Below are positions 3,992 through 60,980 of a stretch of 64,000 nt of DNA, piece by piece. The stretch is from the NCBI RefSeq assembly GCF_964204865.1, contig NC_135257.1, positions 15,500,001 to 15,564,000 of the forward strand. The letters are read 5' to 3'. This stretch comes from Styela clava (lineage: Eukaryota). The notes beneath the pieces are model-generated. The model saw only the letters and a program-made list of their open reading frames with translations, was not told the origin of the DNA and made no database searches. Both the position numbers and the translations under genes were made by a program. Numbering within the stretch: position 1 is the stretch's first letter; each line of letters begins with the position of its first letter.

Positions 3992-6175
3992 AATTTTAAG
4001 CAGATTTCTGTCTGAGAAAATATAAAATAGTACTTGAACATTTTGTGCATAAACTCGGGCACAGTATTTCTAACATAGGTAGCCAACAGTACAATAAACT
4101 TGAATTGTAACTTGATCGAAAAACCTAACCAGTTACTCACGAATTACAGAAATATGAACTACTAGCTGCCTGTACGCTTTTAATGTGTCAGCGTTGCTGT
4201 TATTGCAATCGAGAAGTTTGAATCGAGTTATGAATGAAAGGTCTTCCAAGAAGGTCCAGTTCATTGAAACTGGTCATTACGAACTCGCTCATTCCAAATT
4301 TGTATGAGCGACCTTTTATTACTTCCTCATCAATAACTATATTATGTTGTTTAGCATTGGGCAAAGATGGTTTGCTTTTGTATATCCATGAAACTTCCTA
4401 AACATTTTGATTACTTCCTCCATTTCATCAAAGTTAAAAGAAAGTAATAAAAATATGGAATGCATAATATTAAATGAATGTGTAGGTCTTTTGATGCAAA
4501 AATGGGTTATGGCTTTAATATGAATTATATTTATTTTTTGGAATAGGCTGGATATGAAAATCCGAATAAACTTTGAATAAATAATTTTTTGACAAATATT
4601 TGGTAGTTTCAATTTCCAATAACCCAAGTTTTATTTTTTGATAAAAACTTTAATACATGCGCTATACGCAAAGAACAACTATGGCACAAAGAATTGAAAG
4701 GACAGTTATTTTCCACATATTCAGACTATCGTGTCAATATGACCATGTTTTCCCACTGAATTTGAACTTCAAATAACTGGTTGATACTGAATGTTTTGCA
4801 CTCTTACATTATATCATAAAATTTCAAGTCCAAGTCAATATCGTTATTTGGTCTAACCCAGCATTTAGCCAGGTGTACAACATACTGATGATTATTTTCT
4901 AATTAAAGATATGGGGGGGGGGGTGACTATCGTATCGGTAAACAACAATTTTCCCACGACTCAAAACAAAATTGTAATAATAGTTTGCAAATGGAACGTT
5001 ATCACGCATCTGAAGAAAAAAAATCATTATGCAAAAAGTATAAAAACAGTTGTCAGAAATCACGAAAGTCGACAAAAATATTTCATGTATGAGAAGCGTA
5101 GTAAGATATGAAGAGATTCCGAGTTGCATTTTAAAGCAATAAACTTTTGAACAGGTCTGGTAGACTCAAAATCCTGTTATTCTGTGATGCCAGCCGCGCT
5201 ATGCAATTTTATTAACTCCACTAACTCCTGCAAATGTAACTAAATACTTGTTACTGGCTTAGTTTATGAACCCAAGTCTACTGGAGCATGTAGGTTATTT
5301 ATTCAAAGTCGCAAATTAAAACAAAAAATCAGAAATACTTTTTTCAAATAAACATTAAAACAACATCAAATAACCTTTGGCAGTGTGTGAGATCTGTACC
5401 ACGATTGAGATGACTTGAAAACACGAGTTGAACGTTGAACATAAGACGTTGACCAACTAGTTTTGTGCAGAATTACTGGAGACAATTGTAATTGATATTA
5501 AACTCACTTGTGTGAACCTTAGTACTTGTCATTTTGAAATAATTCTGACATTGTGTAAGCTTCAATATGCTTGGGCTGAGTTTGAAAGCTAGCAAACACC
5601 TTACACGAAAACGAACAAGGGCATTTTTCGTCAAGGAAAAATTATTGGACGCAAAGTGAACCTCTGGATCGGTTTGTTGGATTGTTGTTGCTGTTGGTAT
5701 TCCTCATGTTGTCGTTGGTGTGAAAACATCGCTGCTACAGGACTAGTTACTCTGACATTTTTAGTGGTTAAAGATTGTTGTTATCGCTAAAAGACTACAA
5801 CTTTTATTTATGTCTTGAATTTCTGTAGATGGGATTCGTTTTTTTAATTTAAACGTTCGCGTGATGATGTCATCAACATCAATAACTGAGTTTTTGTTAA
5901 GGTTATAGAGATATATAAGATATAGAGATAGATAATGTAAGAGATATGATGCTACTTTGGTTTGGTATTCGTGCTCATATATTTGAGCATTTCTCTCATG
6001 TTTCAATTAGGAAAATTTGGTTAGTAATAACTAGATTATTCCTCAATGATTTGCTGATCATATTTTACATTGCTTTCTTTTTGAAATATATATACAATAT
6101 ATATACAAACAATTTAATATATATTTTTCAATTATATCAAGATTCTTGAGCAATTACAAGAAATAAATACATTAA

Positions 6176-7568
6176 ATGGAGAGGTTCATCGTTGAAGGCC
6201 ATCCCGAAGAAAATGAGTTCGAAATTGCACAACCAAGTTCTGAAGATTTGCGTATTTGGAGCAACAAAACAATCCTTATTTTTTCTAGGACTGTTTCGGT
6301 AAAAGAATCTCCCGAACATCGTAACTACTGGCATCTGGAAAGAACAAAACATGACAATATGGTTTTTTGGAGTTTTTATCTCATGCGTGGCTCTAAGAAA
6401 TATTATCTTACGTTCCGTAAACGTGAATTAATGTTCCTGGCTGAGGACAAAGGGAAATCGGAAAACAGGTGACGGTGAATTAAAACACAATCTCTTTTTT
6501 CTTTGTTTTTTAATTTCGGTATTTGTTATATTTTACTTGTCCAATCTATGATTTTATTAAAGAGTAGAACAAGATGAACCATAAAACTTGATTCGTTTTG
6601 TCGTAGGTAGTTTATTTAATCTACTCTTTGTGTAATAATCAAAGTTTGTTTTCTAGATTGTTTCAATTACTCTTGCGATCTAATGGGAGTGTGTGCATCA
6701 GACAGGTCATTCTGGTTACCACCACAGTCAGACAAGATTTTTGAAGACCGACCAGGAAAATCAGCTTGTTATGGTTCCAGAAACAAATCTTGGGACAGAA
6801 TATGAGTGGTTTATATTAAAAAAACGCAGTGACATAGAAAAGTAAGTAGTTCAATCTTTTGCGTACTTCAAACTTCAATAATTCTTTTTTGCTTTTTCAT
6901 ACTATAAGTGTTAATATTTTAGTGCCACCAAAATGCTCCATTATGTTGAAATGGTTGCCTCCCATGAATCAAAAAAGTGGATAAGTCAAGGTGTGCTTCC
7001 TCATTCCGAGATTCAAGTGAATCAAACCGGCATCAAGCATGAATGGGAAGTTACAATAGGAGATAAATGGACGTTTGCCGCCGGACGTTATCACGCAATT
7101 CAAACTACAATTAGTGAGATTGACGTAGTGCACTTGGAGGAAGTTGCTGACGAAAATCAAGAAAGGTTGGTTATATAATATTTTAAATGACACGTCTTGT
7201 TTTATTTATTTTCCTCTCTTAATTTTTCTCCCCCTTTATGATATTCCTTTGATGATCTTTTTACTTTGTCTTTTTCAGTCTTCATTAATTATCATTTGAA
7301 TACAATTGACAACAGTTTTATACTATTTTACAGTCGATTGTTTCCTGCGGAGGGAGTAGAGTCAGTAGAGTACTTGTTTCAATCTCCGTCCAATACTGAG
7401 AAATATCTTGCTCTCGGCAATACGGTCGTTGTGTTGAGACCTGGCAAGACCAATGCTACGAGATGGCAACCAATAGAGGCGCGAATATCATATTTCGGAG
7501 AAAATGACGAAACGTTATTTTATCCTCCTGTCGGTGGTCGGCGTCACTCGTCCTCCTCCTCTTCATCT
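6176..7568 (+). CDS. Leaderless protein with two putative beta-trefoil domains (IL-1/FGF/fascin-like fold); 1-nt frameshift in exon 2; 3' end in a gap
   Basis: Exons 6176-6468, 6657-6841, 6923-7165 and 7334->7568 are joined by three phase-2 GT-AG introns. The product has six ~40-aa repeats of trefoil pattern (e.g. WSFYLMRGSKKYYLTF...RLFQL, TRFLKTD...EWFIL, YLFQSPSNTEKYLAL...TRWQPI). The frame breaks between 6684 and 6742. The fold is assigned from pattern only. Confidence 0.6.
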
Positions 7569-15660: not shown

Positions 15661-16519
15661 ATGACTCTGTGCTGTACATTACTGTTTGGTGAGTATGCTT
15701 ATTACGTTAATAGATTTTACAATTTATTAGATAGAAAACGGTCAATTAACTTAAAAATTATAGAAATCGGCTTCTGGCTTATATTTTTTCATAGGCCCGG
15801 AGTTTAGAAATCGTGACCTAAATGGCTTTATTTTTGTAGTTTTGTTAGCAACAAGTTTCTTCAGCGAAGACGTCGACGCAAGATCGTTTCCGACATTTTG
15901 TTCCGATATTTACAACACATTGCCTTCTCCGATGTGGCGACAGCTATGTGGTGAGTGCAAAATTTGTTGGTTTTTGATGCTCCGACGTAAATTCTGACGC
16001 TAGTTTGAAATCGTGTCAATAAATTCTCGTTTTTTATTTTTTGTTGAATAAAAGAATTATTAGAATGAACCTTATTTGCAAATAAACTGTTGGCCGGGAT
16101 TAGTATTAGAAATAGTATTAATAGCACTTCGAATATATTTTTTCCCTTTTTCTGTCGCCTAAGGAACTATCTACTCTGGGGTATGAGTTTTGAATCATGA
16201 CTGATATCCATGCTTATTTTGAGTCCCTCCGCGTGTATTTTTGTGTTGAGGCTGATGGTTTCTATTAAAAATGGTTGTAATTTTAATTAAAAGAGTTTTT
16301 TTTTTTTTAGGTTATGGCAACCCAGGACCATTCAATCCTAGAACTGCAATGAAACGTGACGAAGAAAAAGAAGTTTCCCGCGCGCTTTTAGAAGAATTAG
16401 CCGAGCTACAGTCAGATGGAGAAGTAGAGAAAAGAGACGGATTCTTTGCTCCAAGTGACGACTACCTAAACAACATGATGCGTTGGTTAAAGCTAAATTC
16501 CTACAATCGACGATATTAA
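15661..16519 (+). CDS. Putative neuropeptide/peptide-hormone precursor (130 aa), family unassigned
   Basis: Exons 15661-15688, 15795-15950 and 16311-16519 (phase-1 GTGAGT donors, AG acceptors) translate to MTLCCTLLFGPEFRNRDLNGFIFVVLLATSFFSEDVDA-RSFPTFCSDIYNTLPSPMWRQLCGYGNPGPFNPRTAM-KR-DEEKEVSRALLEELAELQSDGEVE-KR-DGFFAPSDDYLNNMMRWLKLNSYN-RR-Y*. It has a hydrophobic signal core ending VDA, dibasic sites and an acidic spacer. AATAAA follows at 16589. Confidence 0.75.
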
Positions 16520-19500: not shown

Positions 19501-20780
19501 TACCTACTTTTGAACGGCAGGTGGTTGAAAATTTCAAATAAAAATGATAACTTGAAACATACAAATCAAATTGTATGCGCTAACTCGCAAAAACAGTCTT
19601 GTAAAAGCATCAGACATTTTGCAAGTAAAATGTAAAGAATTTTTCTGGGTCAAAGGTCGGGGACAACTCATCAGTCGTCACAGGGCTGCCACTCTAGATG
19701 TTTTATATCTAGATCTAGATGTTTTTTTCAAGATCTAGATGTAAAATTTGGAGCATGTATGTTAGCTATAAAATCTAGATATATATATTTTTCAAGGTTC
19801 TAAATATTATTTAGTGGGAAATAAATAAAGAGATGTGTGTAATACTGTAATAGGTGAATGAATATTATTTCATTATTTAGAAGTATTGATGTAAGATTGA
19901 TAAAACAGTACCGGTACCGGTTTTTATTTACGATAAAACTTATTCATATTGTATTCGTCCACGGGTACCATACAGCCATATGTACTTAAAATATTTGAAT
20001 AACGAATTAAACATGTTTAAAACATGTGACGTTTTAATTAACGTTAAGTAGAAAGGACGACGTTGGTCCGATGATATTGTTGCCAAGGCAGCAAGGGGTT
20101 TTCAAAATTATTAAGTTATTTAAGTCTATAAGTCGGTGGTTCTCAACCGGGGGTCCGCCAAGCATTTCCAGGTGGTCCCCGATTAAATTGTGATTTTAGG
20201 AAATTATTTGCAGTTTAATATCGTTTTTTTGTAATACGCTCGAACATTTGCTGCCTATGACAATGTGACAATAGCCTACAAAAACTATTTTGATTCATCT
20301 CCCGTGAACCTATTGTGACAAATACAAGTTATGACAGCACAATGATAAATACGAGAACGCAGCTACAGTGATCACTTTCTCCGTTTTGGTGCGCCATTTT
20401 GCCGTCCTACCCATAAGTATCGATGGAAGCATTACGTGTTATTGCAGTATTGTTCCATTCGCCTCCCCTTACCTTTGTGAAAGCGAATTTTTTGCTCTCG
20501 TTCATATCAAATTCAAGGCTCGTCACCAACCAAACGTCGAAGACGATTACGTGTTATTGTTCCATTTGCCTCCACTTGTGTTTGTGAAAGTGGATTTTCT
20601 GCTCTTGTTCATATCAAATCCAAGGCTCGTCTCCAACTAAACGTCTATGCGTGATGCGTCTATCGTTATCAAAAACACGACCACGCATTTCAAGACTTGC
20701 TTCTGATATACAACAGCAGAAATCCCATTGAGTGTATTCGATTTGACAAAATAAATGGAAATGTCCACTGGGTCTGGTTT

Positions 20781-21476
20781 GAGGGTCTTACTACTTACTG
20801 AATACAGCGCAAAACCGCACGAAACAGTGCAAAATAGCGCAAAACAGCGCGAAACAGAAGGAAACCAGCGCAAAACAGAGGGAAACAGCGCAAAACAGGA
20901 GACGCAGTCATTACCACCTCCTGCCACGAAAGAACCACGGCGCCTCTCGCCATGGTTTTATGGCGCTATTTCCGGTATATTTACAAGGTTTTGTACCGGA
21001 TTATAGGTCATCATGCGAAATTTTATCTACCTTTTTGGTGCTCCAGGAGTATGTGCAGCAATATGTCGCACAACCTGAATCCGCTACACACACACATACT
21101 ATTTTCAGGTTGTGCGCCATCTTGGTGCACATACTTCTGGAGGTCCATTTTTACCTAACCCCTGACCCTAAAGCCAACCATATCCATATGGAAAATGTTT
21201 TAAATTATGGTACCCAAAATGTGTCACCAGCAGGGGCAGACCTGCCATTACAGCATTACTGGCTACATACGTTGGTTTGTGTTTTTAATTTGCTGCCGAG
21301 GTACTCCAACTCAAAACAAGGTGCCCCGAACTCATTGCAAAATTTTTTTCTGCTTCATACTGTTTCCCTCTGTTTTGCGCTCTTTCATGCTGTTTCCCTC
21401 TGTTTTGCGCTGTTTTCACTGTTTCGCACTGTTTTGCGGTGTTTCGCGCTGTATTCAGTAAGTAGTAAGACCGCTC
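20781..21476. mobile_element. Foldback-like element with ~30-bp TIRs and 10-bp subterminal repeat arrays
   Basis: GAGGGTCTTACTACTTACTGAATACAGCGC ... GCGCTGTATTCAGTAAGTAGTAAGACCGCTC; arrays of AAAACAGCGC-like units inverted at the two ends. Confidence 0.8.
21036..21147. mobile_element. ~110-bp hairpin MITE, copy 1 of 3
   Basis: Palindromic arms ...CAAGATGGCGCACAACCTGAA / TTCAGGTTGTGCGCCATCTTG...; homologous to 56157-56268 and 60423-60537. Confidence 0.8.
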
Positions 21477-23497
21477 TCTGGAGTTTGGTGTTATTTTTTA
21501 CTTGGTTAAATCTGTATGGAACATTAGGTTGCTGTTTAAGCTATAAACTAAATTTCAAATAAAAAACTTTCGAGGGGTCCGCGACCGCTTTGAGAGCACC
21601 AAAAGGGTCCGCAAAGACAAAAAGGTAGAGAAACACTGCTATAAGTGCTATTGAATGTGTCTCTCTTTAAAAGTCAACTTTTCAAAATGCCAAAGTGTAT
21701 ATACACTACCAGCAAAAATTTAGAAAAGATTGGCTTAAGGAATGGTTTGCCCATTCGGATGATAAGAACAAGGTCTTTCGTAAGTTCTACGGGTGGGAAT
21801 TGAATTCTAGGTGATGTTAGCTTCTTCGACATCTAATATTACTGTATTATGGTTACTTTTCATTAAATTCAATGACTTCATATCTAGATGTTTTATTTTT
21901 CAATCTGGATGTTTTTCGAGGTTAATCTAGATGTTTTTAGTCAGGCAAAAGTGGCAGCCCTGAAGTCCTCTTGGTAGCAGAGTTGTCTCTGGGAGATTAG
22001 TACAAATTTTAAACATAATTTCAAAATCCTCCAATAAGAGCAGAGATATGATATAACACTGGTTGATAGTTGAACTTATATAGATGGGATATTATTACAA
22101 CAGAACAATAGTGGCACATCTTGACGTGACCGGTACGGTACGGTACCGTATATCAAGGTACCCTCGACATGACATACTGTACAGACATAGGCTAGCCTAT
22201 CTCAGATGAGTTTTGTATTTCAACTGAATTTACTATGGTAACTAGCCTAAATCAGCAATTACTGTACCGTTTTTTTACCTTGCCATCAATCTATGAAACT
22301 TGTAAGTTGCGGAGAGTATAAAACAACAAAAAAAATTTTTTTGTGCCCCCCACTTTCTCCTGGTCTCATTCTGATATTTAAGAATGAGAGTTTATTGTTT
22401 TAATCAGTTTTTAACGGAAACTATATAAAGCCTTTAGGTATTTTAACTTTGCTTCCCGAGAAATAACGTGGTATTTTCTCATCTTTGTTTGTGTAATGTC
22501 GCTTAGAATTATACTCTTTTGTGACAGACTAGACACTGAGGTTCAACGTTCTTACTACTTCTATTTAACTTGGGATAAGTTTTGAAGTTGCGGAGAGTTA
22601 AAAATAACAAAAAACACTATAAGCCCTCAGATTTTTTTCAAAATTTTTTTGTTATTGAATGGGCTATTTTTCGAAACTGCCAATAAAAGCAGCATCACAA
22701 TACACTAGGTGAAAAGAAGAACATGTTTAGATTTGGTTTTATTATGGCAACCAAACATTGATTCTTTTTTCGTTTATTCTTCAATTTTATGAACAATGTA
22801 GATGTAATATAACATATTTCAAACAGATTTAATATTTCAACCCAATTACCTAATGATTCAATAATTGTCCATCTCAATTGTCGTACATGGATACTGTAAA
22901 TTTTTTAGAAACCACCATTCTCAATGGATTTTCGTCTTAAAACTAGAAGCCTTAAAAATTTGATAAGCCAGTTATGCAAGTCGATGCACAAAGTAAATCC
23001 ATTACACAATTTTTTTATTATCGAGTTTGAGAATTGCTGTTCTAGGTCAAGCATCTGAGCTAAATTATTTGTTTTATTCCGTTATTCCTCCAGTTCTGAC
23101 TGAAATTATTTGGATATTCTGAATAAGTTTGCTTTTCTAAAAAATTATAAATGTAACGATTCAGCAATTGGGTAAGGTAAGGTCTATTACAATATAGTAT
23201 GAAATCTTACTCAGGCTGGTTCTATAGAGCGAGGTCTCTGTTAGGGCAGTAGGGTAAAACTTCTTCTGAAATATTTTGATTAGTCCTCGCAATTTGATGG
23301 TAACTACCGGTACTTCAGGCCCTGGAGGAATATGAGACTGTACGAGAATGCATATGGTGGTAGACCTCGCTTTAGGGCAGCACCTAACTTCATTTCAATC
23401 TGTCAGTTACTATATTATGTTGTTTTCAATCTAGTTGATAAATTATAATTATTCACAATTATAATTCTCTGAACAAGACCTACATACATGATCCACA

Positions 23498-26400
23498 ATG
23501 GAACGCGGAGGAAAGAAATTTAGGAAGAAACGTTCTGGGAAAGTGAGTCTGCCTTTTTCGTCTTACACTCTTCATTGTTACTGTATTATGTCAAAATAGT
23601 ACCATATGCTATTATTTCCTTCCTGATATTGTGGAACGGTGCTGTCACATCCCGCGTCAATTATATTTAGCGTCTGCATATCACGGTTCTGAAGTGCCTG
23701 CCGTTTCAATTAATGTTGTGTTGTGGTTGTGGTCTTGTTGAACTAATATGGCTGCTGTTTTTGCATTACCATTTAATGAGAATGTTGGGAAGAAAAAATT
23801 AGAAGAGGAAAATAAAAATGATTTTCTTGATGAATGTATTGTGGTGAGAGAATTGTGTAGTTTAATTTGAATTTTCAACCTACAAATATTCAGAAAGCAT
23901 GCACTATGATTACTGCATTACTAGTTTGTATAATGTAGAATGTTGATTTCGGATCATCAACCGAAGTGTTCTTTTGCCATTCTTTTCTGAATATTTTTTG
24001 TAAAATTAGGTTTAAATTCAAATTCTCTTTTTTAATATAGAGCACAAGTCTGCAAACAACAAAACTTGATATGGAAATCACCAAGTTTTTGAGGTTTAAT
24101 GTCCCAAGAAAAAGTACAGTAATGCAAAAACAAGCAGTGGAATATTTTCTAGGTTTGTTTTATATAATTCCATATTTCAAAGATTTTTATAGATTATTGC
24201 TTCATTATTTATCGACTAATATATTCACATCACTATAATATTCAAGTTTATATTGGGTTGTGATTTGTGAATTATTGTCAGCCAGCTCGTTACTAATTAC
24301 TTGTAGAACCTGTTTAATGATTTGATAATTGAAGCAATCAAACCACAACTTCAAGAGATGAGAAGTCTAATTTGATTGATTCAATGAAAACAATTTTATT
24401 TAGCTGTCTGACTGAGCTGTCTCTCTACTTTTCAGATGTTTCTTGACTTAAAAATGACTTTTTTGGTTTTTATTAGAGCAAACTTTCCAATACATATATT
24501 AAAATAAGTTTTCCACTTTTACCTAGGAAATAAAGCAGTCGATACTTTATTGGAGTCAAAATGGGCTACTCGCAAAAAAGGAGTCGATCAGTTATTTGTT
24601 TGTAGAGAAGATGCAATTACTTATTTGGATGAGTAAGTATTTCAATTCGTAACCGTAAAAGCAGTCAAGTAGTTGATAATTTGATTCAAATAATATAATT
24701 AAATAAATTAATTGTAATTAAATGGATATATACTTGAACACTTTATTTGATGCTTCTAAATAGCAACAGTCTTATGGTGACCATGATCATGAGTCCCCAA
24801 ATGGTATTCTATAAAACAAAAGTCGGGATTAGGCTATTTTATAAACAACCGCGATGTTTAATTCTGAAATATTTCTCTTTCAAAAGTGCTTATTAATTTA
24901 TTGATTTGACCTGCTTTTACCGGATATGCTATATTATCTGTAATAGTAAGGAACTAGTAGTTTCAATTTCAAACTTTTTTACTTACTCATCAGACTACTG
25001 CGGAAGAGCTTATTCTATAGAGTGGAAAAAATCGAGCTGGGGTCAAAAAACAAAGGCGATAAAAATGAAGTGTCAAAAAATAAGACAGACAAAACAGAAC
25101 AACAATCTGACAAATCTTCTGAAAATAAAAATGTTGTAGAGGAAGTACCTGCCATACAAGAAACAACTTTAAGACAAAGAAAAAAAGATAAAAAAACTGA
25201 AAATACTGAAGATGACAAAACTGAGGATTCGGAATCAAATAAACCAAAGTTGAAATTAAAAGCCAAAGACAAGGTGTGATTGGTTTATATTTTTGTGGAA
25301 ATTTTACCTTAATAATGTTGAGTGCACTAGAAGATGTCATAGAGGTCTAATTTGACTAGGCGAGCTTTATATCTAATTATACCCTCGAAACTTGTCATTT
25401 TCTCATTAAATTGTTGCTTCTCTTATAATTATTGTCAATTGAAAATCTGTAATAACTTTCAATACTGTGAACAAGACAGTGCTTTTGGTGAAATCCTGTT
25501 CCAAATCGGACAATTTGATGGCCAGGCATTTCATCTAATATTGTTCCTCCAATAAATAAAACTACATATTCCAGTTTTGCTGTCGGCTTTGGGAATGTTT
25601 TTATTGATATTGTATCCGAAACTGAAGATCGAATTTCAGGCTTTAATAAAGGATGATGTTATGAGAAATAAAACTTGTAACCAAAACTCAAAAAAGTTCA
25701 AATAAGCATTCTCAACAGATAAAAATTGCTAACATTCGCCAATGTTTTCGCTGGCAAAATTTGGTTTTCTTGGTGCTAGACTGCTACAATTGTGATCGAA
25801 AGAAGTCAGCCAGAAGTTTTCGAAATGGCTCGAGAGTCTGGATTTAGATTCAGGTGTAAAATTACCCCAACTCATAGTCATCAGCTTGCATTTTTTTTGT
25901 AAAATATTCCGACATCAACTTTTTTCTCTAAATCAAAACAGTTGATTTTTCAAAAACTTTCATCAAAATTACAAAACATTCAATTACAAAATTTGGGATG
26001 ACGCAATATGTGTACTCTTGACATCCATTTTACCTTAACCTTCTCACACAATTGAACGTAACCATGACAATCATATGCACACAATCGAACGTTCGATGTC
26101 CTTTACTATACCCTAGTTGCCTCGCCATGACAACCTTGTGAGACTGTCTCGCACTATAATTCCCATGGTTACGCAGGCTGTGGTTCCTTAGTCGATTTTT
26201 TTTTGTTGAAACGACCCGCCTGATGCTGTCACAATCAAACTAAAACCAAATTTTCAAACAATTTGTTGAGATTACGAATAAATTTAGTTCTGGCACGAGG
26301 CTTATTGTTTTCCAATTTTACTCATGTAACACTGTAAATATTTATCATAAAATGTAACTTTTTACGTCACACTTACATGGCCCGCCAGTCTAGGCAGGCA

Positions 26401-29003
26401 CAATTTTTGGCCCCTGGTCCAAAAACCTTGCCCATCCCTGATTCATCCTGTACTTCATTTATCTAGAAAACCAAAGAAAAGCAAGTCACAAAAGTAAAGA
26501 AGAGATATAAGTTGATTCCTCATAATGAGCAGAAATTTTTTGATTCAAAAGATATTTACATTTGGACATATAATCCTGTCAGTTGGAAAACAATTATCAT
26601 GGGTAAGTGGGATTTAATATCAAGAATGTCATGCAATCAACAGTCATTTGGAGCATATTTTCAAGGAAACCTACCGTAGTTTTTGTACAAAGCCTCCTAG
26701 ATTTTTGAAACTTCCGGGTATAATCATTCACAAACAGAAGTTCAAGAAGTTTAATTTCAGTCAACCACAAATCTCAATGTTGAAAAGCCAAAATGCCCAA
26801 AAACTATGAGGTTATGCTTTGAGCCGCATCGTTCAGAGTAAAATAGTATGTACTATGTATACAAGATTGTTGCAGCATAGTCGTCCAATTTTTGACTCTT
26901 GAGTGGTGAGGTATTCACTGGATATAGATTGATCTCTGTTCACTGACATCTTTATATTTCAATGCAAAAGATCCCAATATTCTTGCCGGATGCCTGTATA
27001 ATTTTCAATCTATTGCTGATTGTTATCTATTCATTTCCTAGGTATAGCCGTATTACTTTGTGTTGTTGCTGCAACTTTATTTCCACTATGGCCACCAGAA
27101 GTTCGACTCGGAGTTTATTACTTATCAATTGCCGGTGGAGTATTTATTGGAGCTATATTTGGAATCGCACTTGGTAAATTATTTTATGACAATAGATTCG
27201 ATATAAAAAAACTTATTTCAGTTGCTGATTGTAATAACAACAAAATACTTTTATATAGAAGTACATTAATTTTTTATTCAGGAGCAAAACCGTGGAACTT
27301 TGGTTGTCAAAGACTATAGTTTGTAGTTGACCATTTTTTATACAGGGCATTGTTTTTCACTTCAAAGATCTATTTTATATTACTCAAAAACCACCAATTA
27401 CAAATTCATTTATTGCCTTATTTCATCAACTATTTTTTAAGTAGAAAAATATGCCTTGGGCATTTTAAAACTACAATAATTCAAGTTTAATGAATAATAA
27501 AGTAACGTTGGGGGCTTTATCAACCAAAAATGCCAAAACTTGAAATAGACAGCATGAGAAAACAGAGAATACTATGCATATTTTTGATTTTTAACATGTT
27601 CTGAAATACCATTACTTTGCTTAATATTGATTCAATCTACGATTGGACACTAGCTTAGAGAATATCTGTTTCTTTACAATATTTTCAAATAAATTTTATT
27701 TCTTCATTTTAATAACACTTGTCTTGAATCCCTCAACTTGGTTTAACATTTTCCCAGCAAATAATGATTAAAAATATTAAGATGTTCAAAATGTAAGTTA
27801 CATCATAAGTGACGTTATCATTCTGTATATCCATTTGATAATTTTTAAAAAAGATAAAAATCATAAAATATCACAGAATCCTTTTTCCTATATCTTATCT
27901 TGGTGATATTGCTTATCACAGAGTTATTCAAAATATATTTCTTTTAATTTAGACACTTATAAAACATGTTTTTCATCTATTACAGCTCGCTCTATATTAT
28001 GGACGATTATTTGGGTATTCACTGGAGGGAATCATCATTTATGGATTCTGCCGAATCTGCTGGCTGATGTCGGTTTTTGGGAATCGTTCAAACCGTATTA
28101 TACATATGAATACAAAGGATCCAAAGATAAAAAAGATGAAGATGAGGAAGATGACGAGAATGAGGATGAGGAAGAACAGAGAGAGGGAGAAGATGAGAAT
28201 GAAGAGAATAAAGAAGGTCAGTGTGATACTAAATAAATAGTTTCATTGATTTGTGTTTAGCTGGAAATAAGTTTATCAAATTGTGACAACTTTATAGATC
28301 ATTATTTCTCATCTACTGGTGGTACATACCGGTACCTACCCAACTCTTTTTGGTATATTATTTTTTTTGTCATAGCTAGTGTTACAGGTAGCTCCCATTC
28401 TAACTTTTGAACAATTGGAGTAGTTTATAATGTGTGCATAAATATGTATTACAATAATAATGATTAACTAACCAATATTAGTAATACTACAGTGAATACA
28501 GAGAAAAATTTCTTCATTTCGTCCCCCAAAACCAAAAAAATTACTCCCTGGACAGGAAGCTATATTGTGACGGAGCAAGGATTCAATTTTTAGCTGATGT
28601 AGTCATGTTACAGTCAGGAATGACGTACACAAAAATTGTTATTCCACGCCTACTAGATGTATTTGTGGTACTGAGCTATACACTACACCCACAGGTATGG
28701 TAATCGTACCATAACTAGTTCCAGCTTTGTTCAGAATATTGTTTTGGGGAAATTATGGATGAAATATTTCGTTTTGGATTCATGTCCATTTATTTGAGCA
28801 TTGCTCTCTTGTAATAAATTGAAATTTCATCTGACTGGCAATTTTATGATACATCCTTGTTTTATACAGATGGTGATATGCAAAAGAGTGGGCTTTATAA
28901 TGAGGAGAATCAGGAAAATGAATCTCTTGAAGAACGTAAAACTGATACTGGAGCTACCACAAGATCTGAAGCCTCTACGGAACGCTCCGGAAGCGAATCG
29001 TGA
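23498..29003 (+). CDS. SEC62: Translocation protein SEC62
   Basis: Eight exons: 23498-23542, 24041-24152, 24527-24632, 24994-25273, 26467-26602, 27042-27173, 27986-28216, 28870-29003, with consistent phases. Motifs KFLRFNVPRKST, KAVDTLLESKWA, YIWTYNP, TLFPLWP, HHLWILPNLLADVGFWESFKP match Sec62. Two TM helices and an acidic tail; AATAAA at 29145. Confidence 0.97.
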
Positions 29004-32679: not shown

Positions 32680-44706
<12,027 letters not shown>

Positions 44707-47032
44707 TGCTCAAGAAGTCTACTCTAAATGTCCACAAGTACCCTAGCTTCAGAGACTTATTACATCCGTCGCCTTATTACATGCCTCTTTGTATAGGCTT
44801 TGAACCAGAGTGAATAAGATTTGTCTTGATTTTCCACAAATTATAAACGTCGTCGTTCACTGCATGGCAATAAGCTACATATAATGTAATAAATTGATTT
44901 TCTCTGAAATTAATGAAACTAATGGACGTACATAACCTGTCATAATAATCGATTTTGCGTTTAAAAATTGTACCATAATCACTTCTGTTATCTTTTAGCC
45001 TATTATATTCAAATACTATATTACTTTAATTCACTGCTGTTGATTTCCCCTTGCCATATGTTGTTAACACGTGATACATTGGTAATAACAAGATAAAAAG
45101 TTCATAAGGAAATAATAAAGAAACTGAAAACTATTAATAATTCCTGTCAATTTTAGCGCAATAACCAATAATTATACCCCTGCGTGTTTGCTTATACTAC
45201 GCTAATTTGATGACTGAACGTACAAAAGCAGGCTCTCCAGAAGTGTGTGTACCAATATGAAGGTAACTAATTTTTTTCGCCTACTTTACATCAAGTTGTG
45301 TAAATGAACTGAAACCTATAGGCATATTGGGTATATCACTTGGCTAACACAGACAATCCCCGAACTCGTAATTGAACTAAAATAAAGAAAATCGGAATAA
45401 AATTATTGCCTAATTTTACCCAAGAGCATCTACCTAACCTCAGTTTACTCATTGAACTTCCCAAATTGATTGTATGAAATGTCATCAATCATTATTCTCA
45501 ACATTTGTTCAAAGTCCGTCCTAAAGCCTCATTTGAACAAACTCAAGGCAATTTTTATAGACATTTTTTAGTATCCTAACTCTGAGACATTCCCACAAAA
45601 GAACTTTACTATCCTCTATATATAAACTTGCAAGTGGCCTGCTTTGCATGAACCTCAACTGCTCGAAAAGCATCACATCAGAATAGCATCATGCAACGTT
45701 TTGAAACAGAGAAACAACCTACAAGACAGCAGCGTTTTAGAAATCAATTTTGAAGCTCATTGAGTTTTTTAATCATAGATTAAATCACACCTTGCTTTTC
45801 CCATCTTAAAAACGATTGATTCTGATTGGGGAAATAGTCGTATCAGTCTAACTGGAGCCAAATGACCTATTGATTGATACATGATATAAAGAATCACTTT
45901 ATCCGTGTTCATGTTTATCAATTTCAGTGATGTTTTTAATGGCTGAACTGGTACAGTAGAGATTAGGCACAAAATTATCACTCTAGCAATACGGTGAAAG
46001 GATTAAATACAGCGTTGAAACATGATACAAAATGCGATTAAATGCAATGATTGATTTTCGTATTTTTACGAATTATGCAATATCGAACACGAATCAGTTC
46101 CGGCGATGGAAAATGGTATGTGGAATTCAGCACTCAGAATCCATCATTTAACAAAACCTCGATTACGTTCATTACTTTAAAAACACTCTGAAGCAAAAAT
46201 CGGGTATGGTAGCAAAGAGATTGTGCAAACAACGCATGCCACTAGATCAATAACCAAAATTTTGGTGACGCAACTACTATTAGAGCTTATGTTGAATAAA
46301 GGTGCGGCCCGCGGTTACATCCAGTTATTCTGTCGTTCCCTTCTGTATTAAGGTTGCACACCCTTGCCTCCTTTCCCCTGCAATGGCCAACAGCAAACTG
46401 AAATTTGTGGAAATTGTAGGAGAACTAAATGGCAGACTTGCTTTGAACATGGATGACCACTTTGATGAAATCGCACTAATTCAAGAACATTATAGAATAT
46501 TTTGAAGTCTTAAACCACTTGCAAAATGCAACAAACAGCAAGTAGTACACAATCCTAAAAAGTTCCACTTATAAGTGTGTTATTATTCTCGAAGTACTTT
46601 CATGCGTGCTTTTAGTCGTCGCAGGAAAGTCAGAGTATACAAAGCTTGATCAACAGTAGTGCTAAAATGCAGTATGAATATTTTTTTTCGTGTTTAGAGT
46701 TTAGCATTTAATTTATCTGAAACTTATGAATATGTGTCATAACTCATAGTGTCCTTTATTAAAATTTGTCAAAGTTGGCAACCCTGTGTGTACAGTTAGT
46801 AATACTTCCCAGTTCTATAAAGATTGTTTCCCAACATGGGTATGTCTTGAAAATCGCATGAAAACGTTTTAGTGCTAATAAAATCGATATCTACGAATAT
46901 TTGGGTGAGAACAATTGAAAAAAATGCAATTAGTCTCCCTACAATCTCAAGTTCACGCTTTTTAGAAATTAACATTGAACATTTACCTAATAACATTGGG
47001 CTATATAATTATTCTACAAGTTTTGTTATGTT

Positions 47033-53528: not shown

Positions 53529-55837
53529 CTTATGGGGTCTAAGTTTAATTTAAATATATTCGCGGAAAGTGTGAAGGAAATTTCGAAAATTTGGCAAATA
53601 AAGCTCCACTGACCTGTAGTATAGTTGCTATTCTGTATTTCTATTTTAACATTAAAAAGGCTATGATTAGCAATTGATTTCTGGGTCTCCAACTTTAATT
53701 AATACTTTTGTATTAATTTAGCTTTCTGTTAAACACTTCAAATTATTTTAAAATGTAATATTTATCGGTAATTAACATTAGGGTTATAAATTATATTAGA
53801 GTCCAGGACTGCATTTGATATTATATCGTGGGTTTAATTTTAGCTTTCAAACCATTGGTTTCAAATCTAATACAGTTTTCTTCTTTCATTTCAACTGCCA
53901 AAATGATACTACAGTAGGCTACAGTACAGTACAGTACAAAACTACAATACAGTACTACATACATTTAAATGCTATTAGATTGGGTGTTAATTTTCTACTG
54001 TACAGCGATCAGTACATTTTAAACTTTATTGAAAACGGAAATTTTGTTCCATCAACCTCAATCATAGGAAATGAGAAATATTTAACATCAAGGACTAACA
54101 ACTTTGGAACCAATTATTTTTTATTGTTGACAAAAAAAAAATGGCGTAGGGCATTCAACTTTATACTCAATACCGATCTCCTTATAAGACAATTCATTAC
54201 CAGTAGTTTGATTATGCTTGTTTCAACATGAATGTAATATATATTTTTTTAATATTGATGTTCTCACAGTTTGTATAATAGTAACCATGGCTTCCTGGTA
54301 TTTAATGAATGCGTAATAATAATCTATATATTCAATATAATATTAAACTATAATTTAAATATAATTAATATTATTGTTGGCCATTACGCAAACTCATTTG
54401 GGTCTGCTACAATATGTACACTGGTTTGAATCATTCCATCCGGCGCATCCTGTGTTGTTACCAACATTGTTAAAAAAAACAAAAAAATCACAGAATTAAC
54501 CAGGAATTATAATGAAATGCATGCCGTCGTGAATAGCCAAGCAAGATTGAAAGACTACTTATGCAATTAACCAAAGATATATACTAGAATCATGTTCGAT
54601 TGGGTGTTTTGAAGTGGGAAGTTTTTCACTGTTTTTCTTGTAAAATTTACTGAAGTAATTATATTTACGCATCAATTAATTCATCGCTGCCCAAACTCTA
54701 TTGAAATCGTGACCAGGATTATTTATTTTGGTGAATCGAAAAATATAAGTCCGATCAAGCATGGAAACTAGCATTTGAATTAGGATTTTTGTGTTCCACG
54801 TATGGAAGAGGGTGCTACTCTGCGTCGTAATTTTCACGCAGAAGTAATAAATACGCTATGCCGGCTCGCAGCCCATTAACAAAACAACAATTTTAATATA
54901 AGACCAGGCTGACTGTACCCTATTATTAGTGTGGTGGGGGTACGGCTGATGACAAGATTAGAGAAAAGGAGTCTGCTAGTCTTGATGGTAAATGAAGAAA
55001 ATAATCACGAGTTAAAACGGTTTTAATTTGGACGTGTGAAAATATTTACTCATTTGCTACAAGCGGTCAATACATATGGTAGACTATTAATTTAATTTGA
55101 CTATTAACTATTTATTAATACAGCTAATGCATACATACCTTTTTCTTCTTTGCGCTTGGTAAAAATTGTGAGTCTGATTTCACGTGAATGGAAGTATACG
55201 ATAAAGTACGACTGGTGGGTTACATTGATAAATGTTCTACATTCAAAAATTGTCCATGGTTTAATTTGCGATATAGAATTAGCTAGAGAGATAAATATTT
55301 ACTGTGGTTTATCGTGAATAAGTAGTATTCTGACTGAGAAACAAAAAATGATTGTAAGAGAGTAAAACGGGTGATCGCCAAATGTGTTAAACAATAATAT
55401 CCGTGTCATAGTGTACGAATATTTTATTAATCAACAAATTTTGTATGACGGGCTCCGATTTTGGAGAAACTTTTCATAAACTGAACATTATTTTTAGGGC
55501 GTTTGTTCTGTGATATTTCGTTGTCATAAGATTATCTACTTTTCAAATCTCATGTTTTTACATAAGTGGCGGGGACTTTGTACAAAAGACCCCAATATTT
55601 TACAATGCAAAACGTATATGAGCAATGTGTAAACTTATTTCAATTTTTTTTAACGTGGGCGAGAATTGAAAGGATGTCAGACTGAACGATTGTAGATTTG
55701 AAATTAGCTCAGTGGTTATGTATGGAAGTTGTTGTCAAATCCCGTCTGAAAAATTTCGTTTTTTGTATTCTTACAGGGCACATAAACAATTCCTATTGAA
55801 TAACGAGCATGAGATTGCAACCCTTGCAGCCAACGTT

Positions 55838-58800
55838 ATGAATAGTACAGCATATTCAACTGGCAATGACAGCACTTATGGAAATTATAGCTTGTTCAAC
55901 GACACTTCCAATCATACTACAAACATTACAAATGAAGAAATTGTGCAATCTAAGAGACAGGCGATAGGAGTTGCTTTAGCTGTGTCCGGAAATATCATGA
56001 TTAGTTTGGCACTAAGTGTACAAAAATATGCTCACAACAGGTAAGATTTGCATATCAAATAGTAGACTATACTAATGAATTAAAATATTGCACCTAGCAA
56101 CATATTGAGCTATCAGTTACATGCCATGCCTAAGCGCCTTACTTATATTATATTTTCGGTACTTCCGAAATATGCGCACCAAGATGTCCCACAACCTGAA
56201 CTCTAACCTGCTACAAAACCTGAGTTCAGGTTGTAGGCCATTTTGGTGCGCATACTTCAGGAGGTCCATATTTTCAATATTCTGGTTCCTTATTGAAAAC
56301 GAAATTAAATATGGATCGTTTCGTTATTATGTTGTTGTTAGAATTCTTGCCGGTGGTCTACTGTTACAGATTGCATTCCCGTACTACTTCGTTTTGGTCT
56401 TCGTGTCCAAATATTTGAAAATCACTCCATTGTTTGTTACATCATATTTCAGGGATATGAAATATACGTCGTGACCCAAAAAACAGAACCCATAAATGAA
56501 CATTTATTAGATTTTACACATAAACTTCTGTTTGTGCAGGATTGTACGCAACTTTCAGTAGTCTAGGACGTTTTGTCCAAAAGTCAATTTTTTTTGAAAT
56601 ATTTTGTAAATGGCCTCCTATAGGGAATGCAATCAATGATGTACGATCTCTGATTATCCGACACCAACGCTTCTGTAACAATGTGCCTATAGGCATTGGA
56701 TGCCGACTTGTATTGATTTTTTGAGTGTTTAAGAATGTTTCCTTCATACAAACTGAAATATTCATTACTTTTAAACGATTGTTTTTGACTCATTATCAAT
56801 TTTTTGACTGCAGACTTGGTGACGAGGGAAAATACTGCTTGGACAAATGGTGGTGGTTAGGAATGGTAATGATGGGATTAGGAGAGTTTGGGAATTTCAT
56901 GGCATATGGATATGCTCCTGCTTCTTTGGTTGCACCTCTTGGAAGTGTGGCGGTTTTGTCTAATGTTTTCATAGCTTTTATTTTTCTACGTGAAACTGTC
57001 ACACCACACAGCATTGTAGGAGTCAGTTTAGTCATAGTAAGTTGAATTACATGTTTCAAATTTAGATTTATTATTTTGCCTTAAAGCACAATTGAGTATT
57101 TTTCAATTATACAGTTTCGGTGACTATCTGACTGACATAAACAAAAAAAGGATTTCAGTTTAGTTTAGTGCCTTCTTTCTGCATTTTCTTTATCAATTTC
57201 TAAAAACAAATCTAAACTTGTCTATAAAATGGGTGAAAATATAGTGCTTTTCACGTACGTTTTAACTTACTTGTAAAGAACGAAAAACCTGTTGCGAGCT
57301 GCCACATAATTCAATTAGACTCGTTAATATATTCTTTGAGGATTTTAAAATAGCTATTCAACTATAAGTGTTATCACATATAAATTTTGGAAAACACCGT
57401 AATTTTTACTAAATACAAGATAATATTGTGTATTGTTCACAACTTCATAAAATATTATTAAATGAAAACCTATTGGTCGCCTCTAAATCTTTAAAATAGA
57501 AGAGAGTCTTAGCTTAATAACGCTGGCTTTGCAATGTTCCAATTTGGCTAGTTATTCAGATTCTGGTATTTTCAAGTACAGTATATAAAGCTTTATATTC
57601 AAGATACTGCTTTTGTTGAGCTTGTTTTGTTTATTGTGATCAGTGATCATCTCATAAAGTGGAATCTAACAATGTTCTTCTATTCCGTCTAGATTGGATC
57701 TATATTTCTCATCAGTTTTTCAGCATTCAGTCAGCCTCAATTAGATGTACCAACAATATACGAATATCTGAAAGCATGGAGCTTTTTATTATATATTGGA
57801 ATTGAAATTGTTGCTTTAGGAATTTTATTTTATATATAGTAAGTAAAAATATTTGTAAAACAATAATAACTACGTTTTGAATAAAAATTGTTTTAGAATT
57901 ACAGTAGATCATTTTGTAATTCGATTTGAACTAAACTTTATTCCTCTGTTATTTTCAGTTTCTACAAGAATGTTGAACATTTGTTAATTCTTCTACTCTT
58001 CGTCGCTATTTTTGCGTCAGTCACTGTCATTTCAGCAAAAGCGGTGTCGACTTTACTATCAGAAACCATACGCAGTGGTGTCAAATATATTGCGAATCCT
58101 GTGTTCTGGATCATGCTATTTCTACTACCAGTCACAACAGCAATACAAATTCGTTTTTTGAATAGGGTAAGTTTGTAGATGATTTGTTTGTAGTCATTAT
58201 ACAAACCAGGTTAAATAATAGCTTTCTGGTTGTGAGTAGTTTTTCAAATGTTTGATGTTCTGTACAAATTTTCTTTTCTTATCAATGTCACAACAATTCG
58301 CTTGTAACAGCCATAGCAGGATATGAGTAAGCTTATCATTGATTTTTGCGTATATTTAGACACGAAATGGACCCATGTATCTAGGGATTTGTTCAAAAAG
58401 AATTGTTTTGAAACAATTGTTTTAAATCAAGTTTTTTTTGCCTGTTTTGTTTTAAAATGGCTGTGCTATTTGATATTTTTGTATAAAATATGTTGAAGAA
58501 AACTGGATGTAAAAACTTGCCAAGCGCTTCTTATATGCAATAAATCCTTCAAAACTCCAAAAATATTGATAGAGGCTCATACACACCTTCTCAAGCTGTA
58601 GTTCAGTGGTTTGCGCAGTAAAACGCAACCGGTAAGCCATTACGTTAAAGACCCTGCTACGACGAAATCACTTTGCGAAAATTGAAATGCGATCGAATAA
58701 ATGAGTTTGTAACTTTGTATAACCTTGAAAAACTCTATCGCTTCAACCTTAAAAACAAAGTATGCTAAGCATAAATCACCCGAACAGTATTGACCGTAAT

Positions 58801-60980
58801 ATTGCCATCATTTTATGAGAAAAATGCCAACACATGAACTCGAAATCCATATTATGCGTCATCATAACAGATTAATTGTGAACTTGTGGGTAGTGGCGTC
58901 TTTACATCAGAGGTCTTACAATTAGCATAGGCTAGGCTAGGGTGTCCCATCGTTTATATCAGTATGCCGCCGATGTAAGCATATTCTTCATTATCGCAAC
59001 CCACTCGTTTTGCCGAAGACTGCCCTTGATCTAATAGCCTTTGTAGTAGGCTCGTGACCTACGTTTCATGATTTTTCTTACTCAAAACGTCTCTCTGATA
59101 TTTCGAATGAACATTTCAGTTAAAATCTTATGACATTGGTGAAGATACAAACGTGGCAATAAATGTACGCAATATAAGTAAAAGTCGAAATGAGAATTTT
59201 TACTTACATTTTATGAAATTATAATTCCGGCTGCGTGTGCAGCTGCCAGAATGCAACGTTTTGGCGTAGTTTCGCGGCGATGCAGGGAGTAATTCAACAA
59301 AAAATACAGAAAAATATTGATTCAAAACAAGCCCTCGTTTTTAAAACACGATGTTTGTTTTAGAATTGATAAAAAGCAAAACCCTACATGCATCGTTTTT
59401 TTCATTTTGTATTCTTATTCTTGTTGTTACTGTATGAAAAACCGGCTTTTCTCCTTAATTACAGGACTAATTGCTTTGAAATTCCCAGTGGTTAAAGATT
59501 GTATAATTGAGACAGATTGCATATCCGTACTACTTCGATTTGGATTTCGTGTCCATATATTTGAGCATCGCTATCTTGTTTTAATACTTATGCTTTCATT
59601 ATATAATTAGTGCAAATATTGGTAAATTTGCATATTTTTGTATGAACTTCAATAAACCAAGAAACTGAATATTTGTATTTAACTATGTACTATATTAATT
59701 TTATACATAGAGTGAACCCGCCTCCAGATGTTAAAAGGAAAGACATTTCATCAAAAAAACAAATTTTAACCCCCATTCCTCTTCAACCAAGTTTTACTCT
59801 TATTTTTTATTATTTGAACATTTTATTGAAGCAAAATATAGATTAAAATGACCAGAAATCAGTAAAAGTGGTCTAAGTGTAGTCGTTAGATACCACAAAT
59901 ATACATGCATACACGACAATGAATATAAACATAAGTACTGAATGTACATTTTCAATGTTTAATTTCTGTAAATTCGATAATTTTTTTCATTAATAATGCA
60001 CAGGCAATGCAGCTGTACAATGTTTCTGATGTTGTGCCGGTCAACTTTATATTCTTTACTGTGAGTGCGATATTGGCTGGATCTATATTTTATCAAGAAT
60101 TTTACGGAGTTCCTTTTCTACGTGTATTCATGTTCTTATTTGGATGTTTGTTGTCGTTTATTGGAGTATACATTATTTCTCATAAGTAAGTGTCGATTGT
60201 GAGTTTACAATGTATTTTGAGACATTGTGTGAAATGGATATACGGTATATATATATATATATATATATGAGAAAATTACGTACCTACGTGCAAGTTATAT
60301 CTGTAATTTTTACCGATTAAGAGTGTTATTAGCGTTGATATAACACGTTTATCTGTTTTTTATTTCTATCAAATTGATCTGTTTCACAGAATGCTTACAT
60401 ACGCCACAATACGTACAATTTTGGGAGCTCCCGAAGTATACGTACCAAGATGGCGCACAACCTGAACATAGTATGTGTACCAGGTTAGGGCTGTTCAGGT
60501 TGTACGTCATCTTGGTACGAATACTTCCGGAGCGCCCAATTTTGAATATAGAATGGCCGTAAACAGTCAATCAATTATAATTTTCGATTTGGAATTGGTT
60601 ACGGAGTTATTATGAAACTTGATATTTCTGAAACATAATATAAAAAATAAATATAAGCTTTGTTTAATTAAATTTTCTATTGTTGCTTTTATCGTACATA
60701 AAACCTAAAACCTTATTTCAGAGGTAAAACACTTCCCAAGTGCAGTTGCTGGTGCGGAAAAGAAGAAGACACAGCTAACATTATTGAAAACAAAGATAAA
60801 GATGACGACACCCAGTTGAGTGATATAGAAATTGAAGACGAAAACGATTTAAAAATACCTGAATCGGCTGAAACTTCATCGAGCAATAATCACGGCGATT
60901 TTAGACTTATTGCCAGACTAGCAAATTTTCTGAAACAGACTGAAACCATTTCAAGAGTGCAACCAAAATCGAATGATTAA
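55838..60980 (+). CDS. NIPAL2/3: NIPA-like magnesium transporter (NIPAL2/NIPAL3 type)
   Basis: Exons 55838-56040, 56814-57036, 57693-57838, 57959-58166, 60004-60185, 60722-60980, phases consistent. Motifs IGVALAVSGNIMISLALSVQKYAH, WWLGMVMMGLGEFGNFMAYGYAPASLVAPLG, SVTVISAKAVS, QIRFLNRAMQLY, VVPVNFIFFTVSAILAGSIFYQEF. Confidence 0.95.
56157..56268. mobile_element. ~110-bp hairpin MITE, copy 2
   Basis: Palindromic; flanked by (A)TATTTT on both sides. Confidence 0.8.
60247..60268. repeat. (TA)n microsatellite
   Basis: About 11 TA units. Confidence 0.85.
60423..60537. mobile_element. ~110-bp hairpin MITE, copy 3
   Basis: GGGAGCTCCCGAAGTAT ... ATACTTCCGGAGCGCCC; flanked by (C)AATTTT on both sides. 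Confidence 0.85.

Follow-up and report, generated by a model that had tools for sequence, protein, structure and literature searches.

Beta-trefoil domains occur in lectins, cytokines and actin-bundling proteins, and the closest described systems to the gene discussed here lie among them. HA33, a haemagglutinin of Clostridium botulinum (PDB 1qxm and 3win), and tandem R-type lectins have a two-trefoil architecture that is predicted also for a protein family of the tunicate Styela clava. The gene that represents this family here begins at position 6176 of a 64,000-nt stretch of DNA (contig NC_135257.1, positions 15,500,001 to 15,564,000, forward strand), and this whole stretch is called the window. 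Among the mytilectins trefoil lectins without a signal peptide are the rule, the pore-forming domain has been lost several times, and the group is reported to be absent from tunicates (PMC10744619). The QxW motif is degenerate or absent in some lectin classes, and the HPxGG motif is taken from the same source (PMC9468336).

A first-pass annotation, made from the sequence alone, took the gene for a candidate IL-1-like cytokine. IL-1anc has a C-terminal trefoil, often with a conserved [F/L]ES in strand 9, and usually an N-terminal PDZ domain, which is lacking in a small subset; the genes have two conserved central introns and are linked to GCC2, ESD, EIF2A, TRAF3 or IL-1R (PMC13736523). In Ciona, Botryllus and S. 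clava that study found no IL-1anc, with the caution that members which have diverged far may escape detection. The last three introns of IL-1beta are in phases 1, 1 and 0 (PMC4880838), and IL-1-like activities without a known gene have been described in tunicates (PMC9020223). We find that the window gene belongs to an unannotated family with a known fold, which by the features tested does not appear to be a member of the IL-1 family. Tentatively, we favour a lectin-like role in defence.

The window gene is spliced and has four exons

The gene is real, spliced and transcribed. All three of its GT..AG joints are contained within a single 1841-nt contig of run X1, and the third joint is present also in run X2, from a second study; these runs are presumed to be RNA; no run is on record as RNA. 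A single unspliced piece of run X6, which is DNA-like, spans the stretch and shows no joints, though X6 is not independent of the assembly and may be its source. The four-exon product proposed initially is thus borne out as a spliced transcript.

All features lie on the + strand, and strands are placed from predicted models of paralogues. Starting at the 5′ end, the X1 contig begins at 6083 with an untranslated leader (6083–6175) and continues unspliced to 6468. Coding exon 1 (6176–6468) would form strands 1–7 of the first trefoil (A). Intron 1 (6469–6656, 188 nt) falls just before strand 8, and exon 2 (6657–6841) corresponds to strands 8–12 and a linker. Intron 2 (6842–6922, 81 nt) separates the two trefoils, after which exon 3 (6923–7165), homologous to exon 1, would form strands 1–7 of trefoil B. 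Intron 3 (7166–7333, 168 nt) shares its alignment column with intron 1. Exon 4 is coding from 7334 to beyond 7568; its first part (7334–7484) corresponds to strands 8–12 of trefoil B, with strand 9 as FQS at 7377–7385. This is followed by a family-wide C-terminal beta-hairpin (7485–7540), placed by alignment and by strands 281–288 and 291–296 of the model of the database paralogue P0005. A poly-serine simple repeat, present only in the window copy, begins at 7548–7568. All three introns are in phase 2.

A signal peptide is absent, as was first proposed. An in-frame TAA abuts the ATG, no intron interrupts the X1 contig between 6083 and the ATG, and the N-terminus is non-hydrophobic, the highest nine-residue hydropathy within residues 1–33 being −0.17. 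The run of N after 7568 had been taken for an assembly gap. We reject this, as the genome copy reads through as a serine-codon simple repeat that continues to the stop; 68 of the last 70 residues of the protein are serine, and the full protein is about 382 amino acids long. A short high-copy repeat located just upstream of the gene (5956–6011) attracts many contigs, from all four runs.

The two halves are homologous and are predicted to fold as beta-trefoils

Comparison of the halves points to an internal duplication beyond chance. A profile of domain A scores domain B of the window protein at 20.7 bits, where the best of 320 shuffled B domains (285 of which scored) reaches 4.6 bits, and 11 of 16 B domains in the family score above that best shuffle. 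The exon 1 and exon 3 profiles align in hhalign at 87.9% (E = 3e-6); the match of exon 2 to exon 4 is weaker (21%, E = 0.001, using a corrected alignment). Introns 1 and 3 occupy the same column in the alignment of the two domains, just before strand 8. The claims of a duplicated three-repeat domain, and of a phase-2 intron at a matching place in each half, are both upheld, with intron 2 in phase 2 as well.

Models of two database paralogues, P0005 and P0004, stand in for the window protein. The AlphaFold2 model of P0005 (predicted local distance difference test score, pLDDT, 81) comprises two beta-trefoils, a linker helix and the C-terminal hairpin; each trefoil is predicted to have 12 strands in three foils, in agreement with the six repeats counted originally. 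In the model of P0004, the nearest paralogue, only domain A is confident, the pLDDT of domain B being about 30. Whole gene models end 15–40 residues past the hairpin, the poly-serine tail of the window protein apart.

The matches listed by Foldseek include HA33/HA17, fascin, subunits of cytolethal distending toxin, designed trefoils and FGFs. Comparison with 48,161 chains using VIA-align gave closely tied scores for ricin-type lectin domains, HA33, MytiLec-type lectins, fascin and IL-33. For P0005 these are a carbohydrate-binding domain of a galactanase (15.9), MTX (15.9), IL-33 (15.8), Symfoil (15.8) and HA33 (15.7), followed by Mitsuba and SeviL (15.3 each) and fascin and macrocypin (15.2 each). 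For domain A of P0004 they are a dehydratase domain (16.7), Mitsuba (16.3), Tpp80 and HA33 (16.2 each), fascin (16.0) and IL-33 (15.3). The predicted fold is thus a beta-trefoil, the subfamily of which is not readable from tied structural scores. Sequence searches of the PDB (five profiles and P0005) returned chance-level matches only, with designed symmetric trefoils at E = 1.2–1.4. Antibody light chains, matched by P0005 at E = 0.0025 at best, were discounted in view of its predicted trefoil fold.

The gene belongs to a fast-changing family

Exons 1, 3 and 4 and the paralogue P0005 served as queries against the S. clava genome, and the fetched regions were then scanned with profiles. The searches located paralogues on contigs C2, C6, C8 and C14; the family as a whole lies on C2, C6, C8, C9 and C14. 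There are at least about 26 loci including the window gene, which is the sole copy within its window. Four-exon models, built assuming phase 2, were obtained for 14 loci, 11 of which are apparently whole and 3 doubtful; about 11 further loci are broken or partial. Phase-2 splice acceptors or donors occur at the equivalent places in 10 paralogues examined without this assumption.

In the tree the window gene clusters on a long branch with two C8 genes (support 100/100). Its protein is 38–40% identical to these two and 20–27% identical to the rest. The ratio of non-synonymous to synonymous change (dN/dS), calculated with our own Nei–Gojobori script, is 0.25–0.77 across 14 pairs and never above 1, though values for pairs with doubtful models may be inflated. 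Proteins of the family evolve quickly, under purifying selection.

Among 1.84 billion representative sequences searched with a profile, 14 proteins matched at E <= 0.001, 10 of which are family members. The four left out of the count include P0012 and P0014, which are unrelated repeat proteins, and P0011 (2883 amino acids), which was also set aside and could be a fused form; P0011 matches the exon 1 profile in eight stretches at E = 5e-7. Seven of the 10 are 'uncharacterized' S. clava proteins, while P0005, P0010 and P0013 are unnamed and divergent. No exon 1 match in the S. clava genome is more than 60% identical to P0005 or more than 37% identical to P0010, and the family is therefore likely to extend to other species. 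Longer forms were not found by word-index searches with exon 1 (173–2000 amino acids) or the family alignment (574–2000 amino acids), which is weak evidence. Pfam scans of the window exons, the paralogue exons and 12 database proteins gave nothing above the cut-off, and the DUF7910 profile, searched without a positive control, found no family locus in the S. clava genome. No account of the family appears among the papers listed by literature searches, and six paralogue gene identifiers appear in no paper.

The database isoforms P0001, P0003, P0006 and P0009 lack exon 2 or exon 3, and could in part reflect faulty annotation near broken exons. Because all the introns are in phase 2 the reading frame survives skipping of either exon, and skipping both together would yield a single hybrid trefoil. 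Of 23 sequences, 9 have cysteine within residues 1–12, in many cases together with basic residues. Cysteine clusters and basic stretches at the N-termini of P0008, P0010, P0005, P0003 and the C2 paralogues are possible S-acylation anchors, which suggests that some paralogues may be tethered to membranes; this does not apply to the window copy.

The assembled allele carries a frameshift

The frameshift flagged at the outset is confirmed and lies at 6704/6705, where the assembled allele lacks one base. A premature TGA follows at 6742–6744, and the product ends after 126 amino acids, inside trefoil A; run X6 carries the same frameshift as the assembly. At 6704/6705 the X1 contig has an additional base, and its open exon 2 frame is the repaired frame. 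Exon 2 of the paralogues also has the open-frame length. The frameshift is therefore allele-specific and is not fixed in the species. The assembled allele is likely to be a null, and its product would not fold, whereas another individual, given the presumed RNA nature of X1, makes an in-frame transcript. The paralogue at L008:478-653 (C8, 8.745 Mb) has its own exon 2 frameshift at nearly the same place.

The two alleles differ at 10 coding positions, nine of them non-synonymous. The probability of this is 0.33 under neutrality, 0.08 at a dN/dS of 0.5 and 0.0025 at 0.2, and the differences fit relaxed constraint on at least one allele. On polarizing the nine amino-acid differences, two favour the assembled allele as derived and one the RNA allele; six are uninformative.

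Comparison with the IL-1 family

On an IL-1 reading the protein would be a highly diverged cytokine of that superfamily in which the PDZ domain has gone and the trefoil has been duplicated; it would leave the cell without the help of a leader, and its signalling would run through an Ig–TIR receptor. The absence of a signal peptide is in keeping with this, and the window protein could work in a leaderless, cytokine-like manner. IL-33 is also among the tied structural matches, with no lead over lectins, HA33 or fascin. Chains of IL-1beta, IL-18 and IL-36 are absent among the Foldseek rows listed and the best 50 of either VIA search, which does not in itself exclude the family.

Most other features argue against it. 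The [F/L]ES motif is found in none of 32 domains (16 proteins), and the middle, glutamate position of strand 9 is arginine in all 16 A domains. In the window protein strand 9 reads IR(x) in domain A and FQS in domain B. The FQS...YLAL stretch that had been likened to IL-1 and IL-18 is present as described and would form strands 9 and 10 of domain B. It is not a feature of the family; FQS is confined to the three-gene subclade of the window gene, most other B domains having L-Q/K-C. The PROSITE IL-1 signature (from PMC4880838 and PMC7144542) matches none of 16 proteins, in line with the incomplete fit noted at first. The IL1 profile PF00340 scored no family locus in the S. clava genome, in a search made without a positive control. 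Each trefoil is interrupted by one phase-2 intron (in the window gene, with which the paralogue models agree), compared with two central introns in IL-1anc and phases 1, 1 and 0 in IL-1beta. There are two trefoils, not the one of IL-1anc, and neither PDZ domain nor propeptide, the window protein having just 14 residues ahead of strand 1 and most paralogues 17–34; the difference from IL-33 is of the same kind.

Tunicate gene order is scrambled, which weakens any argument from linkage. ESD lies on C18 and eIF2A-family matches on C3 and C17, and the family is linked to neither, unlike the IL-1 superfamily genes described (PMC13736523). The neighbours of the window gene are a Kunitz protein, SEC62, a kinase and a NIPA transporter (of the linkage markers, ESD and eIF2A were searched for). 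The first interpretation is supported in part, and we consider an IL-1-like cytokine improbable. The same slight chance is given to its evolutionary form, a missing tunicate branch of the IL-1 superfamily in which IL-1anc would have lost the PDZ domain, duplicated the trefoil, acquired a new set of introns and grown to about 25 genes.

A lectin-like role and its alternatives

Lectins, fascins and toxins had been listed beside the cytokine. Among these the leading candidate, at somewhat less than even probability, is now a family that evolves by birth and death and encodes lectin-like proteins of defence without a leader. It is favoured because two trefoils in about 300 amino acids, with no enzyme or pore domain, recall HA33 and amaranthin; because most of the tied structural matches bind carbohydrate; because a degenerate QxW is kept in 10 of 16 B domains; because mytilectins are as a rule trefoil lectins that lack a leader (PMC10744619); and because clusters with many broken copies probably typify defence families. 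In such a scheme the protein would be made in the cytosol. Either in that compartment or once released by a non-classical route, it would encounter glycans of microbes or exposed glycans of the host, as do leaderless MytiLec-type lectins. As in HA33, avidity would come from two linked glycan-binding domains; gains and losses of genes would follow changing targets, and the cysteine-rich or basic N-terminal segments of several paralogues, which the window copy lacks, might tether them to the inner membrane face.

Several results weigh against this. The window protein has no QxW, a motif that stands before strand 4 in 11 of 32 domains of the family, HPxGG is found in none of 23 sequences, there is no ricin-type Pfam match for the exons or 12 database proteins, and PF14200 has no match in the S. 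clava genome (one control genome was positive). Glycan binding by the family is a prediction from analogy. The described lectins also differ. HA33 is 10–14% identical and its domains are oriented differently (rmsd about 15 across the pair), and relative to it and to tandem R-type lectins the family has an extra C-terminal hairpin, only a degenerate QxW and a sugar binding that is predicted. MytiLec/Mitsuba and SeviL, from marine invertebrates, differ in the HPxGG motif that is lacking here and in domain number, there being two here. The amaranthin-type agglutinins (PF07468) are a plant family, compared with which there is no Pfam match and no fused aerolysin domain.

The last of these bears on a further proposal, that the family derives from a pore-forming lectin of the aerolysin type and keeps its binding half, with the pore domain lost and the hairpin as its stub; such a protein would agglutinate or regulate a partner. 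Pore domains have been lost several times in mytilectins (PMC10744619), the hairpin after trefoil B is conserved, and Atlas features match Agglutinin+Aerolysin/ETX_MTX2 clusters (0.92 and 0.91) and a chordate Fascin+ETX_MTX2 cluster (0.90). The shared features number 143 of 256, below the same-family level, the exon 4 profile matches no aerolysin-type chain in the PDB, and whole models stop soon after the hairpin except for the poly-serine tail. Neither an aerolysin nor an ETX_MTX2 domain is found by Pfam in 12 database proteins, and the ETX_MTX2 profile found no family locus in the S. clava genome, in a search without a positive control. This origin is very unlikely.

Fascin consists of four trefoils. 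A fascin-like intracellular adaptor would have F-actin or a different cytosolic protein as its partner, with the cysteine or basic N-termini anchoring some paralogues at the membrane, and fascin is among the tied structural matches. The family has two trefoils, and the Fascin profile (PF06268) detects the S. clava fascin on C18 and a gene like FRG1 on C3 but none of the family loci. The family profile gives E = 0.011 for a fascin exon and a comparable 0.025 for an unrelated open reading frame, and rapid birth and death would be unusual in actin bundlers. We regard such an adaptor as rather unlikely. A protease inhibitor of the mycocypin, I66 or Kunitz-STI type, the variable loops of which would block host or pathogen proteases, is about as improbable as the cytokine; the structural scores are tied at best or lower, there is no Pfam inhibitor match, and the matched inhibitor entries are single-domain. 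Some explanation other than these five is unlikely, though to be kept in mind. The lectin-like reading is retained as the favoured one.

Neighbouring genes

An open reading frame on the minus strand at 3–551, 5.6 kb upstream of the trefoil gene, encodes two Kunitz/BPTI domains (E = 1.7e-36). A small multi-exon gene at 15780–16519 (+) resembles a secreted peptide precursor; it has a hydrophobic leader, a cysteine pair about 15 residues apart that an intron divides from the rest, two Lys-Arg sites, an acidic spacer and no Pfam match, and is possibly a neuropeptide or a defence peptide. Exons of SEC62 lie at about 24900–28300 (+), of a protein kinase, GRK-like by eye, at about 34600–45100 (−), and of a NIPA-type Mg transporter at about 55600–61000 (+). 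A dispersed repeat, in which long open frames overlap, is present at 20640–21560 and near the C14 cluster (L064:341-1158).

Neighbours elsewhere were named by eye (L067:427-1590; L056-L058; L060:8267-9551; L061:7538-9693). The C2 cluster is followed by a single-exon protein with sushi and trypsin-like protease parts, a tandem array of sulfotransferase-like genes surrounds the C8 copy at 18.99 Mb, and transposon remnants lie within the C14 cluster.

Implications

The tunicate thus has an unannotated, fast-evolving double beta-trefoil family that is invisible to Pfam, with a null allele probably segregating at the window locus. It provides a concrete set of candidates for whether tunicates keep a relative of IL-1, against which the present evidence argues; were the tunicate IL-1 branch real, it might account for the IL-1-like activity that was reported in tunicates decades ago. 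If the proteins are lectin-like, the family, about 11 paralogues of which are intact, would add a leaderless glycan-recognition family to chordate innate immunity.
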